From Methanothermobacter marburgensis str. Marburg (GTDB lineage: Archaea; Methanobacteriota; Methanobacteria; Methanobacteriales; Methanothermobacteraceae): a stretch of DNA of 24,000 nucleotides. Shown here piece by piece: positions 2,194 through 18,536 of this stretch (positions within the stretch are counted from its first letter, which is position 1; every line of letters starts with the position of its first letter). A model generated the notes under the pieces. The model saw only the letters and a list, made by a program, of their open reading frames with translations, did no database searches and had not been told where the DNA came from. The position numbers and the translations under genes were made by a program. Location: positions 1,284,170 to 1,308,169 of the forward strand of contig NC_014408.1 of NCBI RefSeq assembly GCF_000145295.1, written 5' to 3'.

Positions 2194-3390
2194 CTAAGAT
2201 TCATCACAATCAAAGAGCTCAGAACACATCCTCAAGAACTCTCTATCATCCCTCTCTGCAGCATCCCTGATTTTCAGTGCAATATCATGGAATATCTTAT
2301 CAACTATTGACCTTGTGAGACCCTCAACAACCCTCTCAGGGTCCTTGCTGTTTTCAATTTTCTTAATTGCCTTACCTGCCTCCCTCTGCCGGAGGGACTC
2401 CATGCGCCCCCTTATTTCAGCAAGAAGTGGCTCCACCTCCCTGTGCTTCATGGCCCTCAGGAGGAGTTCAAGTTCAGCCCTTACTATCCCCTCAGCCTCC
2501 CTTGCCTCGGCCTCTCTCCTCTTCCGGTTCTCCTCGGCCACGCCCCTGAGGTCATCGATTGTGAATAGCCTGACTCCAAGTTCCCTCACGGATTCCTCTA
2601 TATCCCTTGGGTTGGCTATGTCCACCATCACAATGCTGGACCTCCTCTCAGGGGGAACCGCATCCATGACACGCTCACGGGTGAGTATGTAGTGGGGTGA
2701 GCCTGTGGCACTTATAACAACATCTGCATCCCTGAGGGCCCTGTTGAGCCTGTCGAAGTGTATTGCATCACCGCCGAGTTCGCATGCAAGCTGGTAGGCC
2801 CTCTCATATGTTCTGTTTGCAACCATTATTGCCTTGAGGTGCTTTTCGGCGAGGGCACGGGCAACCAGTGTCCCCATTTTACCGGCCCCTATAACAAGGA
2901 CCTTCTTGCATTTCAGGTCACCGTGTATTGACTCTGCAAGATCAACAGCCGCTGATCCTATTGAGACAGAACCCCTGTTTATCTTCGTCTTCCGCCTCAC
3001 GGTCTGTCCCACATGGACCGCCTTGGTGAACACCATATCAAGGAGGGGCCCGCAGGTGCCCTCACGGAGGGCCTGTAGCCTTGCAGCCTTTATTTGTCCA
3101 AGTATCTGGTCCTCCCCGATTATCATGGACTCAAGGCCTGAAGCCAGTCTCAGAAGGTGCAGAAGGGCATCCTCATCTTTTTCAACTGTAAATCCATTAA
3201 AATCAAATTCAGGTGGGACCCCTGTGACATGAAGGTAGTACTCGACCCTGTTGCAGGTCATCAGTGGCACCTTCTCGGTCACGGCTCCAAGGGCCTCAAG
3301 TTCACCCACAATCTCCTCTATTCTGCCTGATGCTGTCTCCATTGTCTTCACATCAGAGGTCTTGTGGTCGAGTCTTATGTTAAGAATCAC
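2194..3390 (-). CDS. hemA: Glutamyl-tRNA reductase
   Basis: This 398-aa protein has an N-terminal LDHKT...VE..R catalytic region, the conserved LESMIIGEDQILGQIK motif and a Rossmann GAGKMG NADPH site. It starts at GTG and overlaps the sirC stop by 11 nt. Confidence 0.92.
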   Translation of the reverse strand: MILNIRLDHKTSDVKTMETASGRIEEIVGELEALGAVTEKVPLMTCNRVEYYLHVTGVPPEFDFNGFTVEKDEDALLHLLRLASGLESMIIGEDQILGQIKAARLQALREGTCGPLLDMVFTKAVHVGQTVRRKTKINRGSVSIGSAAVDLAESIHGDLKCKKVLVIGAGKMGTLVARALAEKHLKAIMVANRTYERAYQLACELGGDAIHFDRLNRALRDADVVISATGSPHYILTRERVMDAVPPERRSSIVMVDIANPRDIEESVRELGVRLFTIDDLRGVAEENRKRREAEAREAEGIVRAELELLLRAMKHREVEPLLAEIRGRMESLRQREAGKAIKKIENSKDPERVVEGLTRSIVDKIFHDIALKIRDAAERDDREFLRMCSELFDCDES

Positions 3391-3997
3391 CTGAAGCCCC
3401 CCTATCCATGATTATGTCCCGAGCCCTTCTTATGGCACCCTCCAGATCACCAGCTTCAAGTTTTTCCTGTACCATTTTATCCTCTGAGATCTCATAGAGA
3501 ATTCTGCGCCTCTTTCTGTGATCCTGGACCTCTTCCATTAGCATGCGGCGGGATACATCCTGAACCTCAATCATTAGTATATCCTCTGGTTTTATGGCCT
3601 CCTGGATCCTCCTGCGAAGGTATTTTGCCATAAGTGGACTCTTTTTACCTGTGAATACTGAGATTGAAACATCCGCTATTTTGAATGTCGATGGGACAAC
3701 CACGTTACCCCTTGATGGGTCATCTGCCCGGTTAAGGAGTTTGCCACCTGCAAGTTCAGTTACCCTTTCATTGAGGCTTCTATCGGGACTTGCGGCAACT
3801 ATGAGGTCTGCCTTCTTAATCCACTCCTCAAGTTTTTCTTCTGTGATTGAAACAGCGCCTTCAACTTCCTGTCCAAGAACCGCGACCTCTGCACCGGCCT
3901 CGATGAACCTCATCGCCCTTCTTCTTCCAACTTCACCTGAACCCACCACGAGTACCCTCTTACCTTCCATGTCAATGTAGAGGGGTGTGAGGGACAT
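3380..3997 (-). CDS. sirC: Precorrin-2 dehydrogenase / sirohydrochlorin-forming enzyme (siroheme synthase N-terminal domain type)
   Basis: This 205-aa protein has an N-terminal GKRVLVVGSGEVGRRRA Rossmann motif, as in CysG-N/Met8/SirC. It lies next to hemA. Confidence 0.8.
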   Translation of the reverse strand: MSLTPLYIDMEGKRVLVVGSGEVGRRRAMRFIEAGAEVAVLGQEVEGAVSITEEKLEEWIKKADLIVAASPDRSLNERVTELAGGKLLNRADDPSRGNVVVPSTFKIADVSISVFTGKKSPLMAKYLRRRIQEAIKPEDILMIEVQDVSRRMLMEEVQDHRKRRRILYEISEDKMVQEKLEAGDLEGAIRRARDIIMDRGASGDS

Positions 3998-4008
3998 TTT
4001 ACCATCCG

Positions 4009-4476
4009 TCAGAGGGATTTCATTCTGAGTATCTTCATGGCTGTTCTGAGGTCATTATCTGCCTCGGCAAGGGCCTCCCTGGCCTCTTCAATGGATACAT
4101 CAAAGGCGTCTGCCAGGGCCTTCACACTGTCGGTGTCAGGTTCAGATGTGCCCACAAGTTCCTCTGAGAGCCTCTTTTTGAGTTCCATGTACTCCTCAGT
4201 TGTCATGTTGATCCTCTTCATGGCCATGTCCCTGAGTGGACAGGGCTTTGAGGGCTTGCAGCACCAGACAAGTGAACCGAAGCATGTCCCCTGGCCCTCG
4301 CCGAGCCTCGTATTCCTTGCGAATGACTCCTTGATTTCAATGTAATCCTGTGGTGTCAGTCCCGCCTCCTCGAGTGCTATCATTATTGGGCAGGGCTTCA
4401 CCGGTGGGCAGCAGAATGTAAGCGCCCTTTTATCACCACCCCTGCAGACATGGGATGGTGCGTCGCTCCATACCAA
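4009..4476 (-). CDS. Methanogen-specific Cys-rich protein with two CC-x3-KPCP repeats (resembles methanogenesis marker domain 9) and a C-terminal UBA/NAC-like helical domain
   Basis: There is an internal duplication: [10 protein letters not shown]...DYIEIKE and [10 protein letters not shown]...EYMELKK. The C-terminus ([23 protein letters not shown]) looks UBA-like. A strong AAGGAGGA RBS lies upstream of the ATG at 4476. Confidence 0.55.
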
Positions 4477-4609
4477 ACACAGTCCTCCTTTATTAATTAT
4501 GTTTATTCTGTTAATAATAATTCATTACATGGTGGCTGAAATAACACCACTTAATGCCTTTAACAGCTTTTTTGATAAATAAATTGTGGTTCGCAGATAA
4601 TAAAGGGGG

Positions 4610-10160: not shown

Positions 10161-10556
10161 TTATGATGGTGTTTTAACCGCCTTATCGACCGGAAGGTCT
10201 GGGGGTGCCGTTATGATTATTGCCCCCTCCCTGGGCCTTATTATTATTTCACCCTCATCTATGACCCTGGTGTGGACTGCCACCGCACTGTTCTTTATGT
10301 GGCTGGACATGTCAATGCCATTAACCGTTACCCGCCTCAGGCCTGCGACAGGTATGAGGTAGTACTCTGATGGCCCGGTGTTTTCACTTATCTGGGGCTT
10401 TCCTGATGCCTCACCTGCCCCCCCTGAAAAGGTGGTTGTCACCACAAGGAAAATCAGTATTGTGAAGAGTATATCGATGAAGGGAACCATGTTGAACCTT
10501 GGCCTTCCATGGACCTTGTTCCTGTACCTCTCTGTATCCAGGACCATTTTTATCAC
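10161..10556 (-). CDS. exbD: ExbD/TolR-family biopolymer transport protein
   Basis: This 131-aa protein has a [19 protein letters not shown] transmembrane segment with the conserved Asp, followed by a small soluble domain. It overlaps the exbB stop by 4 nt. Confidence 0.8.
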
Positions 10557-11392
10557 TGCCGCAGCTTACTCTCAATGATCTCGGCGCTCTTACCGCACCT
10601 TTCGAGTATTATATTGTTTATGCTCTTCTCAAGCATGCTGGGCTTGAATGCCACCACAAGGTTTGCCTCAGGGTCATCAACCGTCCTCACGCTGACAACA
10701 CCATCCGATTCCATGAGGGCCTCGACCACATCATCAACGTCTCCATCAACCCTTATCCTCATGATGGCGTACCCCCAGTTTGTCATCTTCTTTATGAGTT
10801 CAATCTTGTCTATCTCATCGTCTATCCTGCCTGTTATGTAGGAGTAGAGGGGCATGAGGATTATGGCAACTGCCAGTCCAAGTATTGTGGTTATCAGTGC
10901 AACATAGATCCCCTCAGCCATTGCAGCGGGGTCAGCGTTAACACCTAGGGCCCTGAATGTGTACCATATCCCTATGACGGTCCCTATAAGACCCAGCATT
11001 GGGGCGACCTCTATTATTGTCCTCAGCGTCCCAAGACCCTTTGTCATGTTGCTCATCTCAACAATGAAAACACGCTCCATCGCATCCTCAACCTCTGAAC
11101 GGTTCCTGTAGCCTATCTTGAGGGCCTCTGATATTATCTTTGATACTGGATTCTGGTACTGCCCTATCTCCCTGAGTGCCTCAAGTGCTCCGCCCTTCTC
11201 CATGGATTCATTGACCTTACCTATTATCTGGGGTGTGCTAACACGTGAAATCTTTCTTAGGTAGTGTATCTTCTCAATGGACGTGATAAAACCATAGACA
11301 CCTGTGATTGCTATTATGTATGTTATTACACCGCCGCTGCGGAACATTTCAAGTACTGTGCCAAAGAAGTTGAAAACTGGTTCGAGAAACAT
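10553..11392 (-). CDS. exbB: MotA/TolQ/ExbB-family proton channel with an extra C-terminal soluble domain of about 95 aa
   Basis: This 279-aa protein has three predicted TM helices and the PMLGLIGTVIGI signature. Residues from about 185 to 279 have no counterpart in canonical ExbB. A GGTGAG RBS lies 8 nt upstream of the ATG. Confidence 0.8.
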   Translation of the reverse strand: MFLEPVFNFFGTVLEMFRSGGVITYIIAITGVYGFITSIEKIHYLRKISRVSTPQIIGKVNESMEKGGALEALREIGQYQNPVSKIISEALKIGYRNRSEVEDAMERVFIVEMSNMTKGLGTLRTIIEVAPMLGLIGTVIGIWYTFRALGVNADPAAMAEGIYVALITTILGLAVAIILMPLYSYITGRIDDEIDKIELIKKMTNWGYAIMRIRVDGDVDDVVEALMESDGVVSVRTVDDPEANLVVAFKPSMLEKSINNIILERCGKSAEIIESKLRQ

Positions 11393-12112: not shown

Positions 12113-13186
12113 TTATTTCATTGCCTTGAGCCTTACCTCAGGTTCAAGTGCCCTTGGTTCTGCAGCAACTATTGCGGCTCCCTTGGCAACCACTGTCATG
12201 GGGTCATCTGATATCTCGGCAGGAATGCCAACCTCATCCAGTATCCTCTCCCTGAGGCCCCTGAGCTGTGAGGTTCCACCCACAACAACAGTCTTGTTGT
12301 AGACCCCTGAGATGAGTTCAGGTGAGAGCCTTTCAAGTACCGCTGCTATGGAATCCACTATACCCTTTACAACGGGCTCAGCAGCCTCTGCAACCATTTC
12401 AGAGTCAATTTCAACCTTTTTAGGTTTGTTTGTCTCCATGCATTTACCTATAACCACTGTTTTGAGGTTTTCAAGATCCTCCTTACACTTGACCATCCCA
12501 ACCTCTATCTTTGCCTTCTCTGCCTCATGGATGCCTATCTCAACATTGTACTTCTCCTTCACCAGTTCAACAAGGTTGGTGTCAATATCATCCCCGCCGA
12601 CCCGGATTGTCTCAATGTCGGTTATGCCTCCAAGGGATATCACGACAATGTCACTGGAACCGGCCCCTATGTCAACAACCATGGTCCCTGACGCCTCTGC
12701 TATGGGCAGCCCGGCCCCTATGGCAGCTGCAAGGCCCTCACTTATAACCAGGACATAATTTGCCCCGGCCTTCCTTCCTATCTCCTCAACGGCATTTCTT
12801 TCAACCTCTGAGGCATCCCCTGGTATACCTATAACTATCCTGTCAATGGACTCAGAATCTCCTGCCCCCATCTCCATTGCATATACAAGGAGGGCCTCTG
12901 CCTGTGCAACGCTCTCAATAACACCCTTCCTCAGTGGTCTCACAGCGATTATGTCCTCAGGGGTTCTTCCGAGCATCATCTTTGCCTCTTCACCCACTGC
13001 AAGGACATATGATGGGTCCTCCTTCTTGACGGCCACCACAGAGGGAATCTTGTAGATATCAAATTTATCCCCTGCTGGTTTGGCAACCACGGTGTTGAGG
13101 GTACCCAGGTCTATTCCGAGTGTATTGGTGATTGCACTCTTCCTTTCCGGTTTCTCTTCAGATTTTTTCTTTCCAAATGAAAACAT
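12113..13186 (-). CDS. mreB: MreB-type actin homologue
   Basis: Motifs are GIDLGTLNT, RPLRKGVI, ISEGLAAAIGAGLP and MVVDIGAGSSDIVVISLGG. I place the start at ATG 13186 (MFSFGKKK...), not 13225. The minus strand there reads GAGGAGGAG TAG C ATG, so a strong RBS sits inside the last codons of the upstream gene. Confidence 0.88.
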   Translation of the reverse strand: MFSFGKKKSEEKPERKSAITNTLGIDLGTLNTVVAKPAGDKFDIYKIPSVVAVKKEDPSYVLAVGEEAKMMLGRTPEDIIAVRPLRKGVIESVAQAEALLVYAMEMGAGDSESIDRIVIGIPGDASEVERNAVEEIGRKAGANYVLVISEGLAAAIGAGLPIAEASGTMVVDIGAGSSDIVVISLGGITDIETIRVGGDDIDTNLVELVKEKYNVEIGIHEAEKAKIEVGMVKCKEDLENLKTVVIGKCMETNKPKKVEIDSEMVAEAAEPVVKGIVDSIAAVLERLSPELISGVYNKTVVVGGTSQLRGLRERILDEVGIPAEISDDPMTVVAKGAAIVAAEPRALEPEVRLKAMK

Positions 13187-13187
13187 G

Positions 13188-13829
13188 CTACTCCTCCTCA
13201 AATATGTCTCTAAAGTCAACTGCAAATATGTTGTTGCGGGATGCTATCTCATTTATCCTCTCAACATCACCTGATTCATGAACAGATATCAGCAGTGTTA
13301 CCAGGACAACGTCTGTAACCTTGAAGAGGGGGTCGATTATATTTCTTATAAATCCCGGAAGCCTCTCTGTAAGGTAGACGTCTGTCTCTATAAACCCGCT
13401 CGTTCTGTCCTCAAGGATGAAGGAAAAACCTATTTTATTCTTTTCAGCCTCCCCTGCAAACCTTTTCATATAGTTCTCAGGGGCGACAAGAAGCACAAGG
13501 TTGGGTTCGTTCTCAACGTAATATGGGGCTATCTTTATATAGGCCCCTCCCTTTTCCTTGCAGATAAGTGAAAGATCTCTTATTTTGTTGCTTTCGCCAT
13601 AAAGCATTATTAAATCAAAGCGTTTTCTTAAAAAGGAATCCTTGATGGTAACGTGTTCCCTGAAGAGTATCTTTACAAGATCCCTTGAGGTGATTGCCTC
13701 GTAGGCCACAGAGTTGACCATTTCCTCATTACCCGCAATCACACACCACAGCCTGTCTGAACTCTGGGCTGTTGAAACCTGTGCTGCCTTTCTGAGAACC
13801 TTTATCTTACTCTCTATCATCACCATCAC
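13188..13829 (-). CDS. Uncharacterised soluble protein (213 aa) translationally coupled to mreB
   Basis: This long ORF has coding-like composition, no TM helices and no motif I recognise. Its acidic FEEE C-terminus encodes the mreB RBS. The exact start among MMVM (ATG ATG GTG ATG) is uncertain. Confidence 0.6.
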   Translation of the reverse strand: MMVMIESKIKVLRKAAQVSTAQSSDRLWCVIAGNEEMVNSVAYEAITSRDLVKILFREHVTIKDSFLRKRFDLIMLYGESNKIRDLSLICKEKGGAYIKIAPYYVENEPNLVLLVAPENYMKRFAGEAEKNKIGFSFILEDRTSGFIETDVYLTERLPGFIRNIIDPLFKVTDVVLVTLLISVHESGDVERINEIASRNNIFAVDFRDIFEEE

Positions 13830-13963: not shown

Positions 13964-14024
13964 AGGTGCTGATGAGTGAAAGACTGCATCCCTAGGTTAA
14001 TATACAGGTGCTGATGAGTGAAAG
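13964..14024 (+). repeat. Perfect 19-bp direct repeat AGGTGCTGATGAGTGAAAG (13964-13982 and 14006-14024) in the psd leader / divergent promoter region
   Basis: The match is 19/19 with a 42-bp period. Each copy has an AGGTG Shine-Dalgarno-like element followed by ATG AGT GAA. Confidence 0.9.
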
Positions 14025-14091: not shown

Positions 14092-14772
14092 GTGTTTGTT
14101 AAGGGCGTTGCAAAAAGAGCCAGTTTTCTCATAAGTGTGGCCACCATCCCATTTCTCCTAGGCTACCACGCGGTCAGTATACTCATGTTCAGCCTCATAG
14201 CATTCATGATGCAGTTCTTCAGGGACCCTGAAAGAAATATTCCCTCTGAAGATAATATCATCGTTGCCCCCGCAGATGGTAGGCGTTTATCCGGCAAGAT
14301 AGACCGTATAAAAAGGGTAGGGTCCGATTATCCCCTCATTGACAGGATATTTCCCAATGGTGGTGAGGCTATTCTCATAAGCACCTTCATGTCACCATTT
14401 GATGTCCACGTAAACCGGGCCCCTGTTTCGGGAAGGGTGATATACACAGAGCATACTGACGGTAAATTCAGGGTTGCACGTTCACGTGTCCTCACCGAAA
14501 ATGAAAGGAACCTGATCGTGATAGAAACAGAGCATGGCAATGTTGGTGTGGTGCAGATAGCAGGGTTCATTGCACGGAGGATCGTTCAGTACGTCAATGA
14601 GGGAGACTATGTTGAGCGGGGGAGCCGTATAGGTATGATAAGGTTCGGCTCAAGGGTCGACCTCATACTGCCAGAAAACTGTGAGGTGCTTGTGAAGACC
14701 GGTTCAAGGTCTGTTGCCGGGGAGACTGTTGTAGCAAGGTTCGTAAAGCCTAAATCAGACCGCAAAAATTAA
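14092..14772 (+). CDS. psd: Archaetidylserine (phosphatidylserine) decarboxylase proenzyme, small Asd type
   Basis: Motifs are FFRDPER, APADG, HVNRAPV.G and the FGSR self-cleavage site. The ORF opens at GTG 14083, but AGGTGA at 14081-14086 favours the in-frame GTG at 14092. Confidence 0.85.
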   Translation: MFVKGVAKRASFLISVATIPFLLGYHAVSILMFSLIAFMMQFFRDPERNIPSEDNIIVAPADGRRLSGKIDRIKRVGSDYPLIDRIFPNGGEAILISTFMSPFDVHVNRAPVSGRVIYTEHTDGKFRVARSRVLTENERNLIVIETEHGNVGVVQIAGFIARRIVQYVNEGDYVERGSRIGMIRFGSRVDLILPENCEVLVKTGSRSVAGETVVARFVKPKSDRKN

Positions 14773-14813
14773 TTAGTCAGACACAACCATATACAACTCT
14801 GCAGGTGGCGCTG

Positions 14814-15497
14814 ATGAATGACAAAAAAATAACATCCTTCATATCATTACCTGATGTTTTATCGATTTTAAATGCTTCTTCAGGCTATTTTTCCATTTTA
14901 ATGTCCATTCAAGGGTATTTTAGTGCTGCATCTATTCTGATGCTTCTGGCTGTCGTTTTCGATTCACTTGATGGGTGGGTTGCACGCCGAACTGGTAGAG
15001 TTGATATTCATGGATTTGGCAAAAACATGGACTCCCTTTCAGATGTAATCTCATTTGGTGTTGCTCCAGCCATTTTTATCTACCTAACAAGTGCCCATTT
15101 TCGATATATTAATATATTAGTAGGTCTCTTAATAGTAATATGTGGCATACTGAGACTCTCAAGGTTCAATGTTCTCACAGGGGGTGGGAAGAACTTCACG
15201 GGACTTCCAATACCCGTGGTGGCGGTTGTTGTATCATCATTTTATCTCACAGGATTCTACAGTGAGAAGGTTGTGGGGGCAATGCTGCTCGCTGTCGGTA
15301 TCCTCATGGTCAGTAGCATTGAATACCCTCGTGTGGGGGGTAAAATGGCATCTATTGCTTTCATACTCATAACAGCAGCAATTGTAACAGGCATAACTGG
15401 AATTCTCACTGTTCCCACAGCAATCATACTTTTTATGGCCACTGTGGCATACATTGCAGTGCCTATAACACCAATGAGACGTGATCTGAATGCTTGA
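14814..15497 (+). CDS. pssA: CDP-alcohol phosphatidyltransferase, archaetidylserine synthase type
   Basis: The signature D-G-x2-A-R-x8-G-x3-D-x3-D reads as DSLDGWVARRTGRVDIHGFGKNMDSLSDVISF, and the protein is polytopic. ATG 14814 is preceded by AGGTGG at 14803-14808; the ORF opens at GTG 14805. Confidence 0.85.
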   Translation: MNDKKITSFISLPDVLSILNASSGYFSILMSIQGYFSAASILMLLAVVFDSLDGWVARRTGRVDIHGFGKNMDSLSDVISFGVAPAIFIYLTSAHFRYINILVGLLIVICGILRLSRFNVLTGGGKNFTGLPIPVVAVVVSSFYLTGFYSEKVVGAMLLAVGILMVSSIEYPRVGGKMASIAFILITAAIVTGITGILTVPTAIILFMATVAYIAVPITPMRRDLNA

Positions 15498-16800
15498 TAA
15501 GATTAAAGGTAATGAAAAGGGGAATAAGAATAATCCTCCTGATCTCCGGAAAAACAACAGAAAAGGTGACTCGAAAATTGGAGACAAACTCAAGGGACTT
15601 GTGGGTAAATTCGGTGGCGGTGAGGGCTCGGATAAGAAAAAACCCAGGCCCATGCCAAAACCCCGGCCCCGGCTGAAAACCCCTGAAGAGCCAAAGGCCA
15701 GAAAAGCCCCTGAAAAACCTCTCAGGGGTGGTGAACAGCCTAAGCCCAGACTTACACCACCACCCAAACGACCTGGAGGCCCATCAGGAGGTATAGGTCG
15801 GAAAATTCCAGATGAGGACCAGAAAACCCTCGTTGGTGCCCTTGTCTTTGGTGTTATTCTAATGGTCCTTGCTGGTGCAGGCTACTACTTCTTAGTCTAC
15901 CAGCCATACCAGGAGGTGCTGCAGAACGCCAAGGCCACAAAGATCGCTGAGGTGGACGCACTCTTCAAGGGCCCCCTTGCAACCGACCCCCAGAAGCAGG
16001 CCATACTTGCACAGATAGATGCCGCTGTTACACCCGAGGAGGCCCTGGCGGTTGATGTTGTGGGTCCCGCAACACAGTCATGGCGTACCTATCAGAACCA
16101 GCAAATAAATATAAAAAAGGACCGTGTTGGCAGGGTCATGGTTAATTACACAGATAACGACCAGCAGAAGCGTGTGATAATGAAGGTTGCTGATGCAAAG
16201 AAATTTGTGAGCCAGGCCGATGCAACCGTGCTTGCAAATACACAGATCCAGACCCCTGATACCGTTGCTGTGCCAATAATGATCACGAGACTGCAGGCGG
16301 CAGGCGGCCTTATAAGTGTGGGTAACATGGTCGACGTCTACCTCAACCAGAACGCCACCGAGAACAATACATCAGCTGCAGCATCAACACCAAGAATAAG
16401 CGGGGCTACTGTACTTGCAATTCTTAGATCCAAGGACAGCGGTACAGTGGACGCGCGCATACTAAACACTCAGCGGTTAACACTAAACACAATAACCTCA
16501 CAGAGCGAAAATGAAAGAACATCATCAACAGATGTGGAGCAGCTCCTGCGGGCGGCTGCCTCAGGTGGTCTGAATGAAGCCGAGATCAATGCTATACTCC
16601 AGAACTACGGTATAAGGCTGTCCAACTATGAGAGGTCATCAAATCTGGGAGAGCTTGATGCCAACTACCTCATAATACTCGAGGTCCCAAGGGAGGATGT
16701 CCTCTTCCTGATACAGAACATGAACAGCATCGTTCTGACTGTGCCAACACAGAACGCCCCTGACTGGATGATCAGGGAGCTTCAGAGCATATACGGCTGA
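15490..16800 (+). CDS. Bitopic membrane protein: basic Lys/Pro-rich cytoplasmic tail of about 110 aa, one TM helix, and an extracellular CpaB/RcpC-like (SAF / beta-clip) domain
   Basis: The TM helix is LVGALVFGVILMVLAGAGYYFLVY (aa 113-137). A CpaB-like core is VAVPIMITRLQAAGGLISVGNMVDVY, and a CpaB-like C-terminus is YLIILEVPREDVLFLIQNMNSIVLTVP. N-x-T sequons are present. The ATG overlaps the pssA stop (ATGCTTGA). Confidence 0.6.
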   Translation: MLDKIKGNEKGNKNNPPDLRKNNRKGDSKIGDKLKGLVGKFGGGEGSDKKKPRPMPKPRPRLKTPEEPKARKAPEKPLRGGEQPKPRLTPPPKRPGGPSGGIGRKIPDEDQKTLVGALVFGVILMVLAGAGYYFLVYQPYQEVLQNAKATKIAEVDALFKGPLATDPQKQAILAQIDAAVTPEEALAVDVVGPATQSWRTYQNQQINIKKDRVGRVMVNYTDNDQQKRVIMKVADAKKFVSQADATVLANTQIQTPDTVAVPIMITRLQAAGGLISVGNMVDVYLNQNATENNTSAAASTPRISGATVLAILRSKDSGTVDARILNTQRLTLNTITSQSENERTSSTDVEQLLRAAASGGLNEAEINAILQNYGIRLSNYERSSNLGELDANYLIILEVPREDVLFLIQNMNSIVLTVPTQNAPDWMIRELQSIYG

Positions 16801-16853
16801 CTAAGCCAAAAAATTTATTAAATTTTTATTTAATATTCTAGGTGGGGATGTTT

Positions 16854-17780
16854 ATGAAAAAATGGGTGTATGTTGTTATAGCTGCTGTGTTCATGCTTTC
16901 CATTCTGGGAGTCTCTGATACAGGGTCAGCTGCCAAGGAGACATGGGTTTCTGAAAAACCATCTGCAACCAGTTTCAGGTTGAAGGACCTGACCGCTGTT
17001 ATAACCGTAAAGATAAAGAACAATGACAACAACGTCCAGTACTTCAAGATAGGGCAGGTATACCAGGGAAGCCTTTCAGAGAACAGTACAATTAAATGGC
17101 TCATCCAGTGGACGAATCCAGCGGCGGTTAAAATGGTCAAGTCAAGGACGCCTGAACTGGGGGGTGACTACGGCTGGAAGGTGAAACCTGGGGAGACAAA
17201 AACAGTGTCATTTGGCCTCAGGGCCACGGGGGATATGGGTGAGATACCCAGTTACATCGTTAATGTTGAGTCAGATAACAGCAATTACTGGCCACTTATA
17301 AATGAGCCTGGCCTCATGTCCTCATGGTTCATGCCCAATGAGATAGAGGTCCTAAACCCATCACTGGATCTCAGATACTGGAAGGGGACCTTTGGGTTCA
17401 CTCTGATCAACATCGATGAAGAGAAGGTTTCAGGTATCGTGAGGGCCCCCATTGCCCCTGCAAACTCAAAACTAGTGTACAGTTCACCCAAGGCATTTGT
17501 GGATGATGACCTCTTTGTGAGCACACAGGTTGCTGCATGGGATGTCACAATGGACCCGGAGACCTCACAGAGGTTCGTATACACCTACGAATGGCCCGCT
17601 AAGGTAAGCGGAGGTAACGGTTCAACCAGTGGTGGAGGCTATTACCCGCCAGGCACTCTTCAGGGGACAACCGGTTCATCATCTGTTCCAGGTGCTAAGA
17701 CAGGTGCCCCCTACGGTCCACTGGTGATAGGTGTGCTTGTGACTGCAGCCGCAGTTGCCTACACAAAGATCATACGTTAA
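16854..17780 (+). CDS. Secreted surface protein with a signal peptide and a C-terminal sortase-type tripartite sorting signal
   Basis: The signal peptide is MKKWVYVVIAAVFMLSILGVSDTGSA. The C-terminus is VPGAKTG-APYG-PLVIGVLVTAAAVAY-TKIIR, giving a motif, a hydrophobic helix and a basic tail. A Gly/Ser/Thr-rich stalk precedes the motif. The ORF opens at GTG 16842, but RBS GGTGG at 16841-16845 favours ATG 16854. Confidence 0.7.
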   Translation: MKKWVYVVIAAVFMLSILGVSDTGSAAKETWVSEKPSATSFRLKDLTAVITVKIKNNDNNVQYFKIGQVYQGSLSENSTIKWLIQWTNPAAVKMVKSRTPELGGDYGWKVKPGETKTVSFGLRATGDMGEIPSYIVNVESDNSNYWPLINEPGLMSSWFMPNEIEVLNPSLDLRYWKGTFGFTLINIDEEKVSGIVRAPIAPANSKLVYSSPKAFVDDDLFVSTQVAAWDVTMDPETSQRFVYTYEWPAKVSGGNGSTSGGGYYPPGTLQGTTGSSSVPGAKTGAPYGPLVIGVLVTAAAVAYTKIIR

Positions 17781-17801
17781 TCATCCCACCTTAACTTTTT
17801 T

Positions 17802-18536
17802 ATGGGGACATTCATGAGGCTGGCAACTTTTCTGATAATTGCAGGCATGTTCATAGTGTCGCTCTACGCCCTTCTTGAGGTGAGTTTCTATTCCTCACAG
17901 GTAATTGTTCAGAACCCTGACATCAGGGCTCCGGTCATTGAGATACCATCCATTAACCTTGAGGAGACCATCAACAACCGATCCGTTTTCTATGGAGTCT
18001 ACCATGAACCCATGTCCTACCTCCCTGGTAACAGAACCGTCATACTCTTCGGACACAGGACACTCTACGGCTCACCCTTCCTGAACCTTGATAAGTTGAA
18101 GCCGGGGGATGAGGTCAACCTTAACTGGCCAGGGGTTGGCCTTGCGACTTACAGGGTTAATCGATCATTCATCGTGCCAGCATCCTACCAGATATCCGTG
18201 AATCAGGGGGCGAGGCTATTTCTCATCACATGCCACCCCCTTGGATCAACAAGGGAGAGACTGATAGTTGAGTGTAAACTTGAAGGCATAAAGCCCTACC
18301 AGAGAAACCTCAAGGTTGAGAACCCCAAGAGGTACTATGCGCTACTCATAATACTCGGATTCCTTGGGGCTGGTCTTCTGATCACCAGACTCTATCCTGT
18401 TTATGAAGATAGGAGACTTCTCCTTGCAGCGGTAATCAGCCTCACACTCTTCCTGCTGCTGGGTTACATCTTCCCGATCCCCCCAGAGTTCATATCAGAG
18501 AAACTCATTGAATTCAACAGCATATTTGGACTTTAG
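17802..18536 (+). CDS. Sortase-family cysteine transpeptidase, membrane-anchored (N-terminal TM plus two C-terminal TM helices)
   Basis: The sequence aligns by eye to SrtA: VIEIPSINLEE, ILFGH(85)RT...F.NLDKLKPGDEV, RLFLITC(144)HP and TRER(151/153)LIV. This gives the His-Cys-Arg triad in canonical order and spacing. Confidence 0.8.
   Translation: MGTFMRLATFLIIAGMFIVSLYALLEVSFYSSQVIVQNPDIRAPVIEIPSINLEETINNRSVFYGVYHEPMSYLPGNRTVILFGHRTLYGSPFLNLDKLKPGDEVNLNWPGVGLATYRVNRSFIVPASYQISVNQGARLFLITCHPLGSTRERLIVECKLEGIKPYQRNLKVENPKRYYALLIILGFLGAGLLITRLYPVYEDRRLLLAAVISLTLFLLLGYIFPIPPEFISEKLIEFNSIFGL

Follow-up and report, generated by a model that had tools for sequence, protein, structure and literature searches.

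A classical sortase and an adjacent candidate substrate in pseudomurein-walled methanogens, and the question of the acceptor

What does a sortase do in an archaeon, and to which amine would it attach its substrate? This question is raised by a gene run in the stretch of DNA analyzed here (the window: 24,000 nucleotides of Methanothermobacter marburgensis str. Marburg, contig NC_014408.1, positions 1,284,170 to 1,308,169), in which psd and pssA, encoding an archaetidylserine decarboxylase and an archaetidylserine synthase, are followed by the genes for a DUF515 membrane protein and a signal-peptide protein and by srt, encoding a sortase. Sortase homologs in these methanogens have been noted in the literature for years, and we found nothing reported in the literature searched on the function of these homologs or on how proteins are attached covalently to pseudomurein. 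The original prediction was that psd and pssA supply a lipid head-group amine as the sortase acceptor, with an amine of pseudomurein as its own alternative. In this study, we identified the signal-peptide protein as the candidate substrate of a dedicated sortase in pseudomurein-walled methanogens, and we consider the chances about even that the enzyme anchors this protein to pseudomurein. The features that carry this proposal are the following (window coordinates; paired start positions are alternative starts).

17802/17814-18536, + strand: srt, classical sortase (class E/C-like), PF04203
16842/16854-17780, + strand: candidate sortase substrate, 312/308 amino acids, no Pfam or NCBIfam family
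17685..17777, + strand: C-terminal tripartite sorting signal of the substrate (VPGAKTG-APYG, hydrophobic helix, KIIR tail)

The comparisons below draw on 80 species-level genome loci around srt and 80 metagenome loci around the DUF515 gene. These loci and the homolog searches are almost only from Methanobacteriaceae; Methanopyrus is represented through accession-number proximity in the supplement of Lupo et al. (2025, mSystems, PMC11915815).

The sortase domain scored 64.3 bits against a gathering cut-off of 26.6 (PF04203, E = 1.2e-17), and 102 archaeal-type orthologs were found. The full His-Cys-Arg triad that had been read from the sequence (H85, C144 and R153 in the numbering of a 244-residue protein) is invariant in 13 diverse orthologs. 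Because the orthologs begin at MRL or MKL, srt probably starts at 17814 and encodes 240 residues, which shifts the residue numbers of the original prediction by 4. The gap of 21 nucleotides that it gave between the substrate gene and srt holds only with the start at 17802; from the probable start, the gap is 33 nucleotides. In the ortholog alignment, an N-terminal transmembrane (TM) anchor is followed by the extracellular catalytic domain. By sequence, its closest solved relatives comprise one class C sortase and two further sortases, and the best matches in the PDB, 8t28 (class C, E = 5e-7) and 5go6 (E = 9e-5), have modest E-values. The protein falls below the cut-off of 160 bits in both the class E (NF033747, 35.8 bits) and class C (NF033745, 34.1 bits) models of NCBIfam, and InterProScan assigned CDD cd05830 (class E) to its orthologs in the supplement of Lupo et al. 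On these sequence grounds, the assignment to the classical sortases with an intact triad is well supported, and transpeptidase activity is predicted.

At its C-terminus, the sortase continues in a conserved extension (residues ~170-244; 18310-18533) that comprises a pair of TM helices, the invariant prolines P199 and P225 and a YPVxED[KR] loop. This extension is atypical of characterized bacterial sortases and may serve as a module for docking. The sequences P0103-P0106 had been candidates for a second archaeal sortase paralog but were dropped, as they look bacterial.

The gene before srt encodes, as had been noticed, a signal-peptide protein that ends in a motif, a hydrophobic helix and a basic tail, and this architecture is conserved across its orthologs. 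From the N-terminus, the protein consists of a Sec signal peptide, two β-sandwich domains, a disordered Ser/Thr/Gly-rich linker and the C-terminal signal. Its AlphaFold model (predicted local distance difference test score 76.9) is confident for residues 40-252 and includes the C-terminal helix. We found 144 homologs, all of which are hypothetical proteins of ~300-325 amino acids from Methanobacteriaceae. Neither Pfam nor NCBIfam holds a family for the protein, a PDB sequence search gave nothing significant, and no fold in the PDB, the CnaA/CnaB pilins included, matched the model at E ≤ 1e-3.

The family consensus of the C-terminal signal is [VI]P[TS]xxTG-[VL]P[YF]G, followed by ~17 hydrophobic residues and Y[AS][KR]F[LMF]R (peptides carrying the signal: SVPTKETGVPYG; SVPGAKTGAPYG). 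The pattern [VILA]PxxxTGxP lies within the last 50 residues in 94 of 115 full-length orthologs and nowhere else in the 115 sequences, and the remaining 21 carry near-variants with an extra residue, Ser for Pro, or Ala for Thr. Its most constant core is Thr-Gly-x-Pro-[Tyr/Phe]-Gly. In the orthologs, 23-27 residues separate the Thr-Gly pair from the C-terminus, and the tail ends in [KR]F[LMF]R. The motif is located 3-4 residues from the TM helix, and the segment just before it aligns as a variable low-complexity linker. Position P3 is occupied by K, S, R, P or Q, with Ala in only a few orthologs, among them the GAKTG of the window, and Ala replaces Thr at P1 in some orthologs. No sorting-signal model of Pfam or NCBIfam matched the signal, even at E ≤ 10, and the hidden Markov models for the LPXTG anchor, PGF-CTERM and other archaeosortase signals gave no match to the substrate. 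A search near srt for further open reading frames (ORFs) with the same signal, in the Methanothermus locus as well, found none; there is one per locus examined. A dedicated sortase-substrate pair with a new variant of the sorting signal is thus what these sequences indicate, and this conclusion is well supported.

The closest comparisons are with two bacterial systems. The class E sortases of Actinobacteria, which recognize LAxTG, share the fold family, the His-Cys-Arg triad and the N-terminal membrane anchor with the window sortase, and both CDD and NCBI name its orthologs 'class E sortase'; the window signal GAKTG also has the Ala at P3. However, the enzyme scores below the class E cut-off, the family motif is [VI]P[TS]xxTG rather than LAxTG, and the conserved C-terminal TM helix pair is additional. 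Since the host wall is pseudomurein, the acceptor must also differ from that of class E sortases. The Staphylococcus aureus SrtA/LPXTG system resembles the present one in its tripartite signal, the linker before the motif, the conserved Thr-Gly as the presumed scissile bond, and the location of both enzyme and signal at the outer membrane face. It differs in that Pro and Thr-Gly lie two residues further apart in the window motif, and in that the acceptor here would be a pseudomurein precursor instead of the lipid II pentaglycine.

The locus has been described before. Lupo et al. defined 'cluster C', consisting of genes for an MreB-like protein, a coiled-coil protein, a DUF515/RcpC-CpaB protein and 'Sortase E', and found it in all five pseudomurein-containing genomes that they analyzed. 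The same members, MreB-like, coiled-coil, DUF515/RcpC and sortase, form one bidirectional cluster in the window, and the accessions of the Methanothermobacter thermautotrophicus proteins, WP_010876655 to WP_010876661, have the order of the window. According to Table S2 of that study, the archaeal sortase group occurs only in pseudomurein lineages, at about one copy per genome, and its other homologs come from Firmicutes and Actinobacteria alone. No organisms other than pseudomurein archaea have the coiled-coil protein, and DUF515 occurs also in other Euryarchaeota. The psd-pssA pair is not mentioned by Lupo et al., and neither the substrate gene nor its signal appeared in the searched text and supplements. 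New here are the substrate family, its motif, the overlap of pssA with the DUF515 gene, and the DUF515-srt pair as the persistent core of the cluster.

The phyletic pattern bears on the acceptor. Archaeal lipids with serine or ethanolamine are found outside pseudomurein lineages as well, whereas the sortase, among archaea, is restricted to these lineages, which is one of the points in favor of a pseudomurein acceptor over a lipid. The alternative that the original prediction had kept in reserve fits better than a lipid amine.

We propose a wall-anchoring pathway for the adjacent protein. The 308-residue protein would be exported via Sec, with the C-terminal helix and basic tail retaining it in the membrane, and the membrane-anchored sortase would read the [VI]P[TS]xxTG-xP[YF]G signal at the outer face of the membrane. 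Cleavage at the conserved Thr-Gly would yield a thioacyl intermediate on Cys144, which an amine would resolve, most likely the free amino group of a pseudomurein stem peptide. This stem peptide would probably be carried by a lipid-linked precursor, by analogy with lipid II of Gram-positive bacteria. The two-domain β-sandwich protein would finally be bound covalently to the wall through its Ser/Thr/Gly-rich linker, and the sortase would not depend on pssA as a dedicated source of its nucleophile. Because the locus provides a concrete enzyme-substrate pair with an unusual, defined signal, archaeal sortase function and attachment to pseudomurein become directly testable. If wall anchoring is true, surface display as in Gram-positive bacteria would gain its first counterpart among archaea, and strategies against methanogens in the rumen and gut would gain a target.

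Several points weigh against this proposal. We found no experimental paper on an archaeal sortase in the literature searched. In about 10 loci, srt is kept and no substrate gene lies between the DUF515 gene and srt (L013, L015, L046, L053, L078, L106, L109, L114, L128 and L163), and the gene also seems to be missing there in M. smithii and M. congolense, judging by accession numbers. Such loci suggest that the sortase may act on other substrates. The remaining points concern pssA. Its stop codon overlaps the start of the DUF515 gene (-7 to -11 nucleotides) in 95% of 129 loci, as frequently as korD and korA, the subunits of one enzyme, overlap (88% of loci), and such conservation points to constrained co-expression of pssA with the DUF515 gene. 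One proteomics study reported both the sortase and PTDSS as more abundant after cold shock. Finally, artA-pssA-pssD synteny in Methanosarcina is what led to the work on lipid anchoring by the archaeosortase ArtA.

The loci with srt and no adjacent substrate gene also bear on the possibility that the enzyme only processes proteins. In that case, water would resolve the intermediate and the protein would be released or shed under regulation, or the adjacent protein would not be the physiological substrate at all. The departure of the motif from every characterized sortase pentapeptide and the Ala that replaces Thr at P1 in some orthologs would both be in keeping with this. However, the signal beside the sortase is strongly co-conserved across more than 100 species, and the constant distance from Thr-Gly to the C-terminus and the basic tail are typical of transpeptidation substrates. 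We regard processing without attachment as improbable.

Retention of srt where the substrate gene is absent could also mean that the sortase itself builds pseudomurein, for example as the missing cross-linking transpeptidase, together with the MreB-like protein, the coiled-coil protein and the DUF515 protein, and that the substrate is secondary. The occurrence of the sortase at about one copy in each of the five pseudomurein genomes of Lupo et al., its absence from other archaea and its clustering with MreB-like and pseudomurein-specific genes are consistent with this idea. However, a dedicated protein with a canonical tripartite signal adjoins srt. Furthermore, sortases read linear α-peptide motifs, whereas pseudomurein stem peptides have γ and ε bonds. 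Lupo et al. considered cluster C 'probably not' involved in pseudomurein biosynthesis and suggested pili or surface proteins, and Leahy et al. listed Methanosphaera stadtmanae, a pseudomurein organism, with 0 sortases. A role of the sortase in building the wall polymer is very improbable.

Whether psd and pssA belong to the sorting machinery depends on the gene neighborhood, of which the other relevant members in the window are the following.

14083/14092-14772, + strand: psd, archaetidylserine decarboxylase proenzyme, general housekeeping type (PF02666, TIGR00164)
14805/14814-15497, + strand: pssA, archaetidylserine synthase, general housekeeping type (PF01066, NF038087)
15490-16800, + strand: DUF515 and RcpC/CpaB-like bitopic membrane protein (PF04415, PF16976)
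12113-13225, - strand: MreB-like gene (PF06723, E = 4e-104), divergent from the psd run
13188-13829, - strand: 213-residue protein (cc213) specific to pseudomurein archaea, divergent from the psd run

All five + strand ORFs (psd, pssA, DUF515, substrate and srt) are present head to tail, as had been described. They belong to a tight co-directional run of at least 11 genes, which continues with a gene for an MptD-like dihydroneopterin aldolase (DHNA) and with korD, korA, korB, korG and sucC, all in the same orientation and with small gaps; the srt stop codon and the DHNA start share one base, at 18536. The 8-nucleotide overlap of pssA and the DUF515 gene was verified at 15490-15497, and the reported gap of 41 nucleotides between psd and pssA holds if pssA starts at the annotated ATG (14814). 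Identical entries for psd (ADL58995), pssA (ADL58996) and the 308-residue protein (ADL58998) are found in the public annotation of M. marburgensis, whose starts at 14092, 14814 and 16854 match those of the original prediction. Over the searched region, the DUF515 protein matches a 'MULTISPECIES Methanothermobacter' entry at 100% identity.

The gene order is not unique to the strain, a possibility for which a comparative check had been suggested: psd-pssA-DUF515-substrate-srt is conserved in ~140 Methanobacteriaceae loci, within the near-universal order RNaseHII<-MreB<-cc213 / psd->pssA->DUF515->substrate->srt->DHNA->(kor). However, we rejected this synteny as proof of a link between psd-pssA and the sortase, as RNase HII, DHNA and kor show the same conservation. 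Gene order is a weak functional argument here because linkage to srt is just as close for the DHNA gene, which is unrelated, as for pssA. The DHNA gene follows srt in nearly every locus with enough downstream flank, L163 included, and no functional reason for this is apparent. The MreB-like and 213-residue proteins may likewise be associated with the DUF515 protein and the sortase, a link drawn from synteny only.

Where the gene order breaks, the breaks go against a role of psd and pssA. In 13 loci of one Methanobacterium subclade (L049, L070, L071, L074, L077, L144, L145, L148, L149, L155, L156, L159 and L162), psd is missing between cc213 and pssA, and pssA-DUF515-substrate-srt is kept. In L163, a divergent low-GC locus whose sortase is 40% identical, DUF515-srt-DHNA is intact with a gap of 2 nucleotides between srt and DHNA (2381-2384), and the 467 nucleotides before the DUF515 gene contain stops in all three + frames and no match to pssA. 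In Methanothermus fervidus, the gene for the orthologous sortase (53% identical) is isolated: glycosyltransferase genes and nrdD flank it, and the other cluster genes are all absent within 10 kb. Accession numbering suggests that srt, the DUF515 gene and the coiled-coil gene are close together in Methanopyrus (KOL6) and dispersed in Methanothermus.

Family typing gives a similar picture. Psd matches PF02666 (E = 1.8e-49) and passes the general model TIGR00164 (321.6 bits against 230), and PssA matches PF01066 and passes the general archaetidylserine synthase model NF038087 (268.1 bits against 240). In the NCBIfam 'protein sorting system' models, Psd fails anchor_synt_D (142 against 240) and PssA fails anchor_synt_A (92.9 against 200). 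MTH_1027, the ortholog of PssA in M. thermautotrophicus, is a biochemically characterized bulk archaetidylserine synthase. By these sequence criteria, psd and pssA encode enzymes of the general housekeeping type for archaetidylserine and archaetidylethanolamine that head a long co-directional run, and psd is probably a neighbor that takes no part in the sorting machinery.

These results bear on the lipid acceptor first proposed, in which the head-group amine of archaetidylethanolamine or archaetidylserine from psd-pssA would resolve the sortase thioacyl intermediate and leave the protein lipid-anchored at its C-terminus. The DUF515 protein, translationally coupled to pssA, would then link head-group synthesis to the sortase, in convergence with ArtA and rhombosortase. 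Support comes from the gene order in the ~140 loci, the frequent pssA-DUF515 overlap, the joint increase of the sortase and PTDSS after cold shock, and a cleavage motif so close to the TM helix that it lies at the membrane surface. Precedents are also available: the artA-pssA-pssD synteny goes with functional dependence, and rhombosortase substrates need C-terminal processing. The reasoning from ArtA, PssA and PssD in the original prediction was sound as a precedent, as the gene order in Methanosarcina did reflect function. The ArtA system, with HvPssA and HvPssD in Haloferax volcanii and the artA-pssA-pssD synteny in Methanosarcina, likewise combines a C-terminal tripartite signal with pssA and psd in the gene neighborhood, and a thioester resolved by the amine of archaetidylethanolamine has been proposed for ArtA. 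However, ArtA is unrelated in sequence to sortase, the window signal is not PGF-CTERM, psd and pssA of the window fail the anchor_synt models, and deeper lineages do not keep the psd-pssA neighborhood. Scanning the window ORFs revealed no archaeosortase.

The same lines of evidence count against the lipid acceptor as a whole: synteny extends equally to the unrelated DHNA, kor and RNase HII genes; both lipid enzymes match general models; psd has left the cluster in the 13 loci; DUF515-srt persists in L163 without pssA upstream; the Methanothermus sortase is isolated; and the distribution of the sortase tracks pseudomurein, not these lipids. Moreover, we know of no natural classical sortase that uses a lipid amine. 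The idea that psd and pssA supply the acceptor amine of the sortase is therefore unsupported by deeper synteny, family typing and phyletic pattern, and we consider lipid anchoring unlikely. The overlap, the cold-shock data and the ArtA precedent keep it alive, yet they tie pssA to the DUF515 gene and not to the sortase. If true, lipid anchoring would give classical sortases a new chemistry and their first natural lipid-directed member; C-terminal protein lipidation would then have been invented independently three times, the other two cases being archaeosortase and rhombosortase. Irrespective of the acceptor, the overlap suggests that pssA and the DUF515 gene are co-expressed, and this coupling offers a separate lead on how membrane lipid synthesis is coordinated with envelope assembly.

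The DUF515 gene is the most persistent genomic neighbor of srt, and no other protein of the group is conserved as strongly as its product, which has a mean column identity of 56% and many invariant positions. It matches PF04415 (E = 2.5e-24), and its label as CpaB-like was borne out by an RcpC domain above the Pfam threshold (PF16976, 32.8 bits against 28.8). The structural model shows a disordered Lys/Pro-rich cytoplasmic N-terminus (~105 residues), a long TM/stalk helix and extracellular α/β domains; its best PDB match is the Tad-pilus protein RcpC (9gzr_B), a weak one (E = 0.028, probability 0.72). The protein differs from the RcpC/CpaB proteins of Tad/Flp systems in failing the CpaB equivalog model (TIGR03177, 21.3 against 71), in its long disordered cytoplasmic N-terminus and additional conserved domains, and in its gene context, as no Tad/Flp genes were found among the window ORFs. 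In the wall-anchoring proposal, the DUF515 protein probably acts as an accessory or scaffold of the sortase.

Residues 416-427 of the DUF515 protein (16735-16770) contain a conserved LTVPTQxAPxWM segment that starts like the substrate signal (VPTxx...). As this segment lies in a modeled strand and helix, the likeness is probably a coincidence; alternatively, the segment may act as a mimic that binds in the groove.

The RcpC domain raises the possibility of a pilus-like assembly, in which the sortase would polymerize the β-sandwich protein head to tail, with a conserved Lys of the next subunit as the nucleophile and the RcpC/CpaB-like protein as an assembly or alignment factor. The substrate has two β-sandwich domains and the invariant or near-invariant lysines K59, K69, K97 and K120; among PDB sequences the sortase matches a class C enzyme best, and its class C and class E scores in NCBIfam are similar. 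Lupo et al. also placed the sortase in their tree as 'Sortase E / Sortase C', in line with their suggestion of pili or surface proteins. However, the substrate model matched no CnaA/CnaB pilin fold at the threshold given above, and no YPKN-type pilin motif was seen in its alignment. Only ~14 residues separate the N-terminal TM helix of the sortase from its first conserved strand in the alignment, which leaves no room for the lid of class C enzymes. Each locus has a single substrate gene, with no second pilin or sortase nearby, and Tad/Flp genes are missing from the window. In addition, the fimbriae of Methanothermobacter are built from another protein, Mth60. A pilus-like function is as improbable as processing alone, and anchoring of the adjacent protein to pseudomurein remains the explanation that we prefer.

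The other junction lengths in the run from psd to DHNA vary widely over the 129 loci, with medians of 37 nucleotides for psd->pssA and 36 nucleotides for substrate->srt. The DUF515->substrate junction never overlaps (median 76.5 nucleotides), srt->DHNA overlaps in 25%, and the cc213-MreB junction is ≤20 nucleotides in 95% of loci. Two ways of dividing the run into transcription units were tried and dropped: gap size, as korA-korB lies in a true operon with a median gap of 78 nucleotides, and a TATA-like metric, which is high at internal junctions in these AT-rich genomes. The 53 nucleotides between the DUF515 and substrate genes in the window (16801-16853) are nearly pure A/T (AAAAAATTTATTAAATTTTTATTTAATATT), followed by GGTGG. 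This stretch resembles an archaeal promoter (TATA and B recognition elements) followed by a ribosome-binding site, and the substrate gene and srt might have an internal promoter there.

Locus L158 was considered as a natural sortase-free control and dropped, as the contig looks degraded or misassembled: at 3348-4566, the DUF515 C-terminus is truncated and a short ORF resembles the C-terminal TM region of the sortase, which points to a decayed copy or a misassembly. An Rfam scan of the window gave no matches. Just past the RNase HII and MreB genes, homologs of MotA/ExbB and ExbD are encoded at 10161-11392 (- strand), and a MotA/TolQ/ExbB orthologous group is also among the pseudomurein-archaea candidates of Lupo et al.

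The divergent intergenic region between the 213-residue protein gene and psd contains a perfect 19-nucleotide direct repeat, AGGTGCTGATGAGTGAAAG, at 13964-13982 and 14006-14024 (+ strand), 42 nucleotides apart, for which 0.01 matches are expected by chance. It is strain-specific, as it is absent from all 162 related loci. In each copy, an AGGTG motif resembling a ribosome-binding site is followed by ATG, and very short upstream ORFs of 7 and 22 codons might begin there; alternatively, the copies could serve as sites for a regulator.

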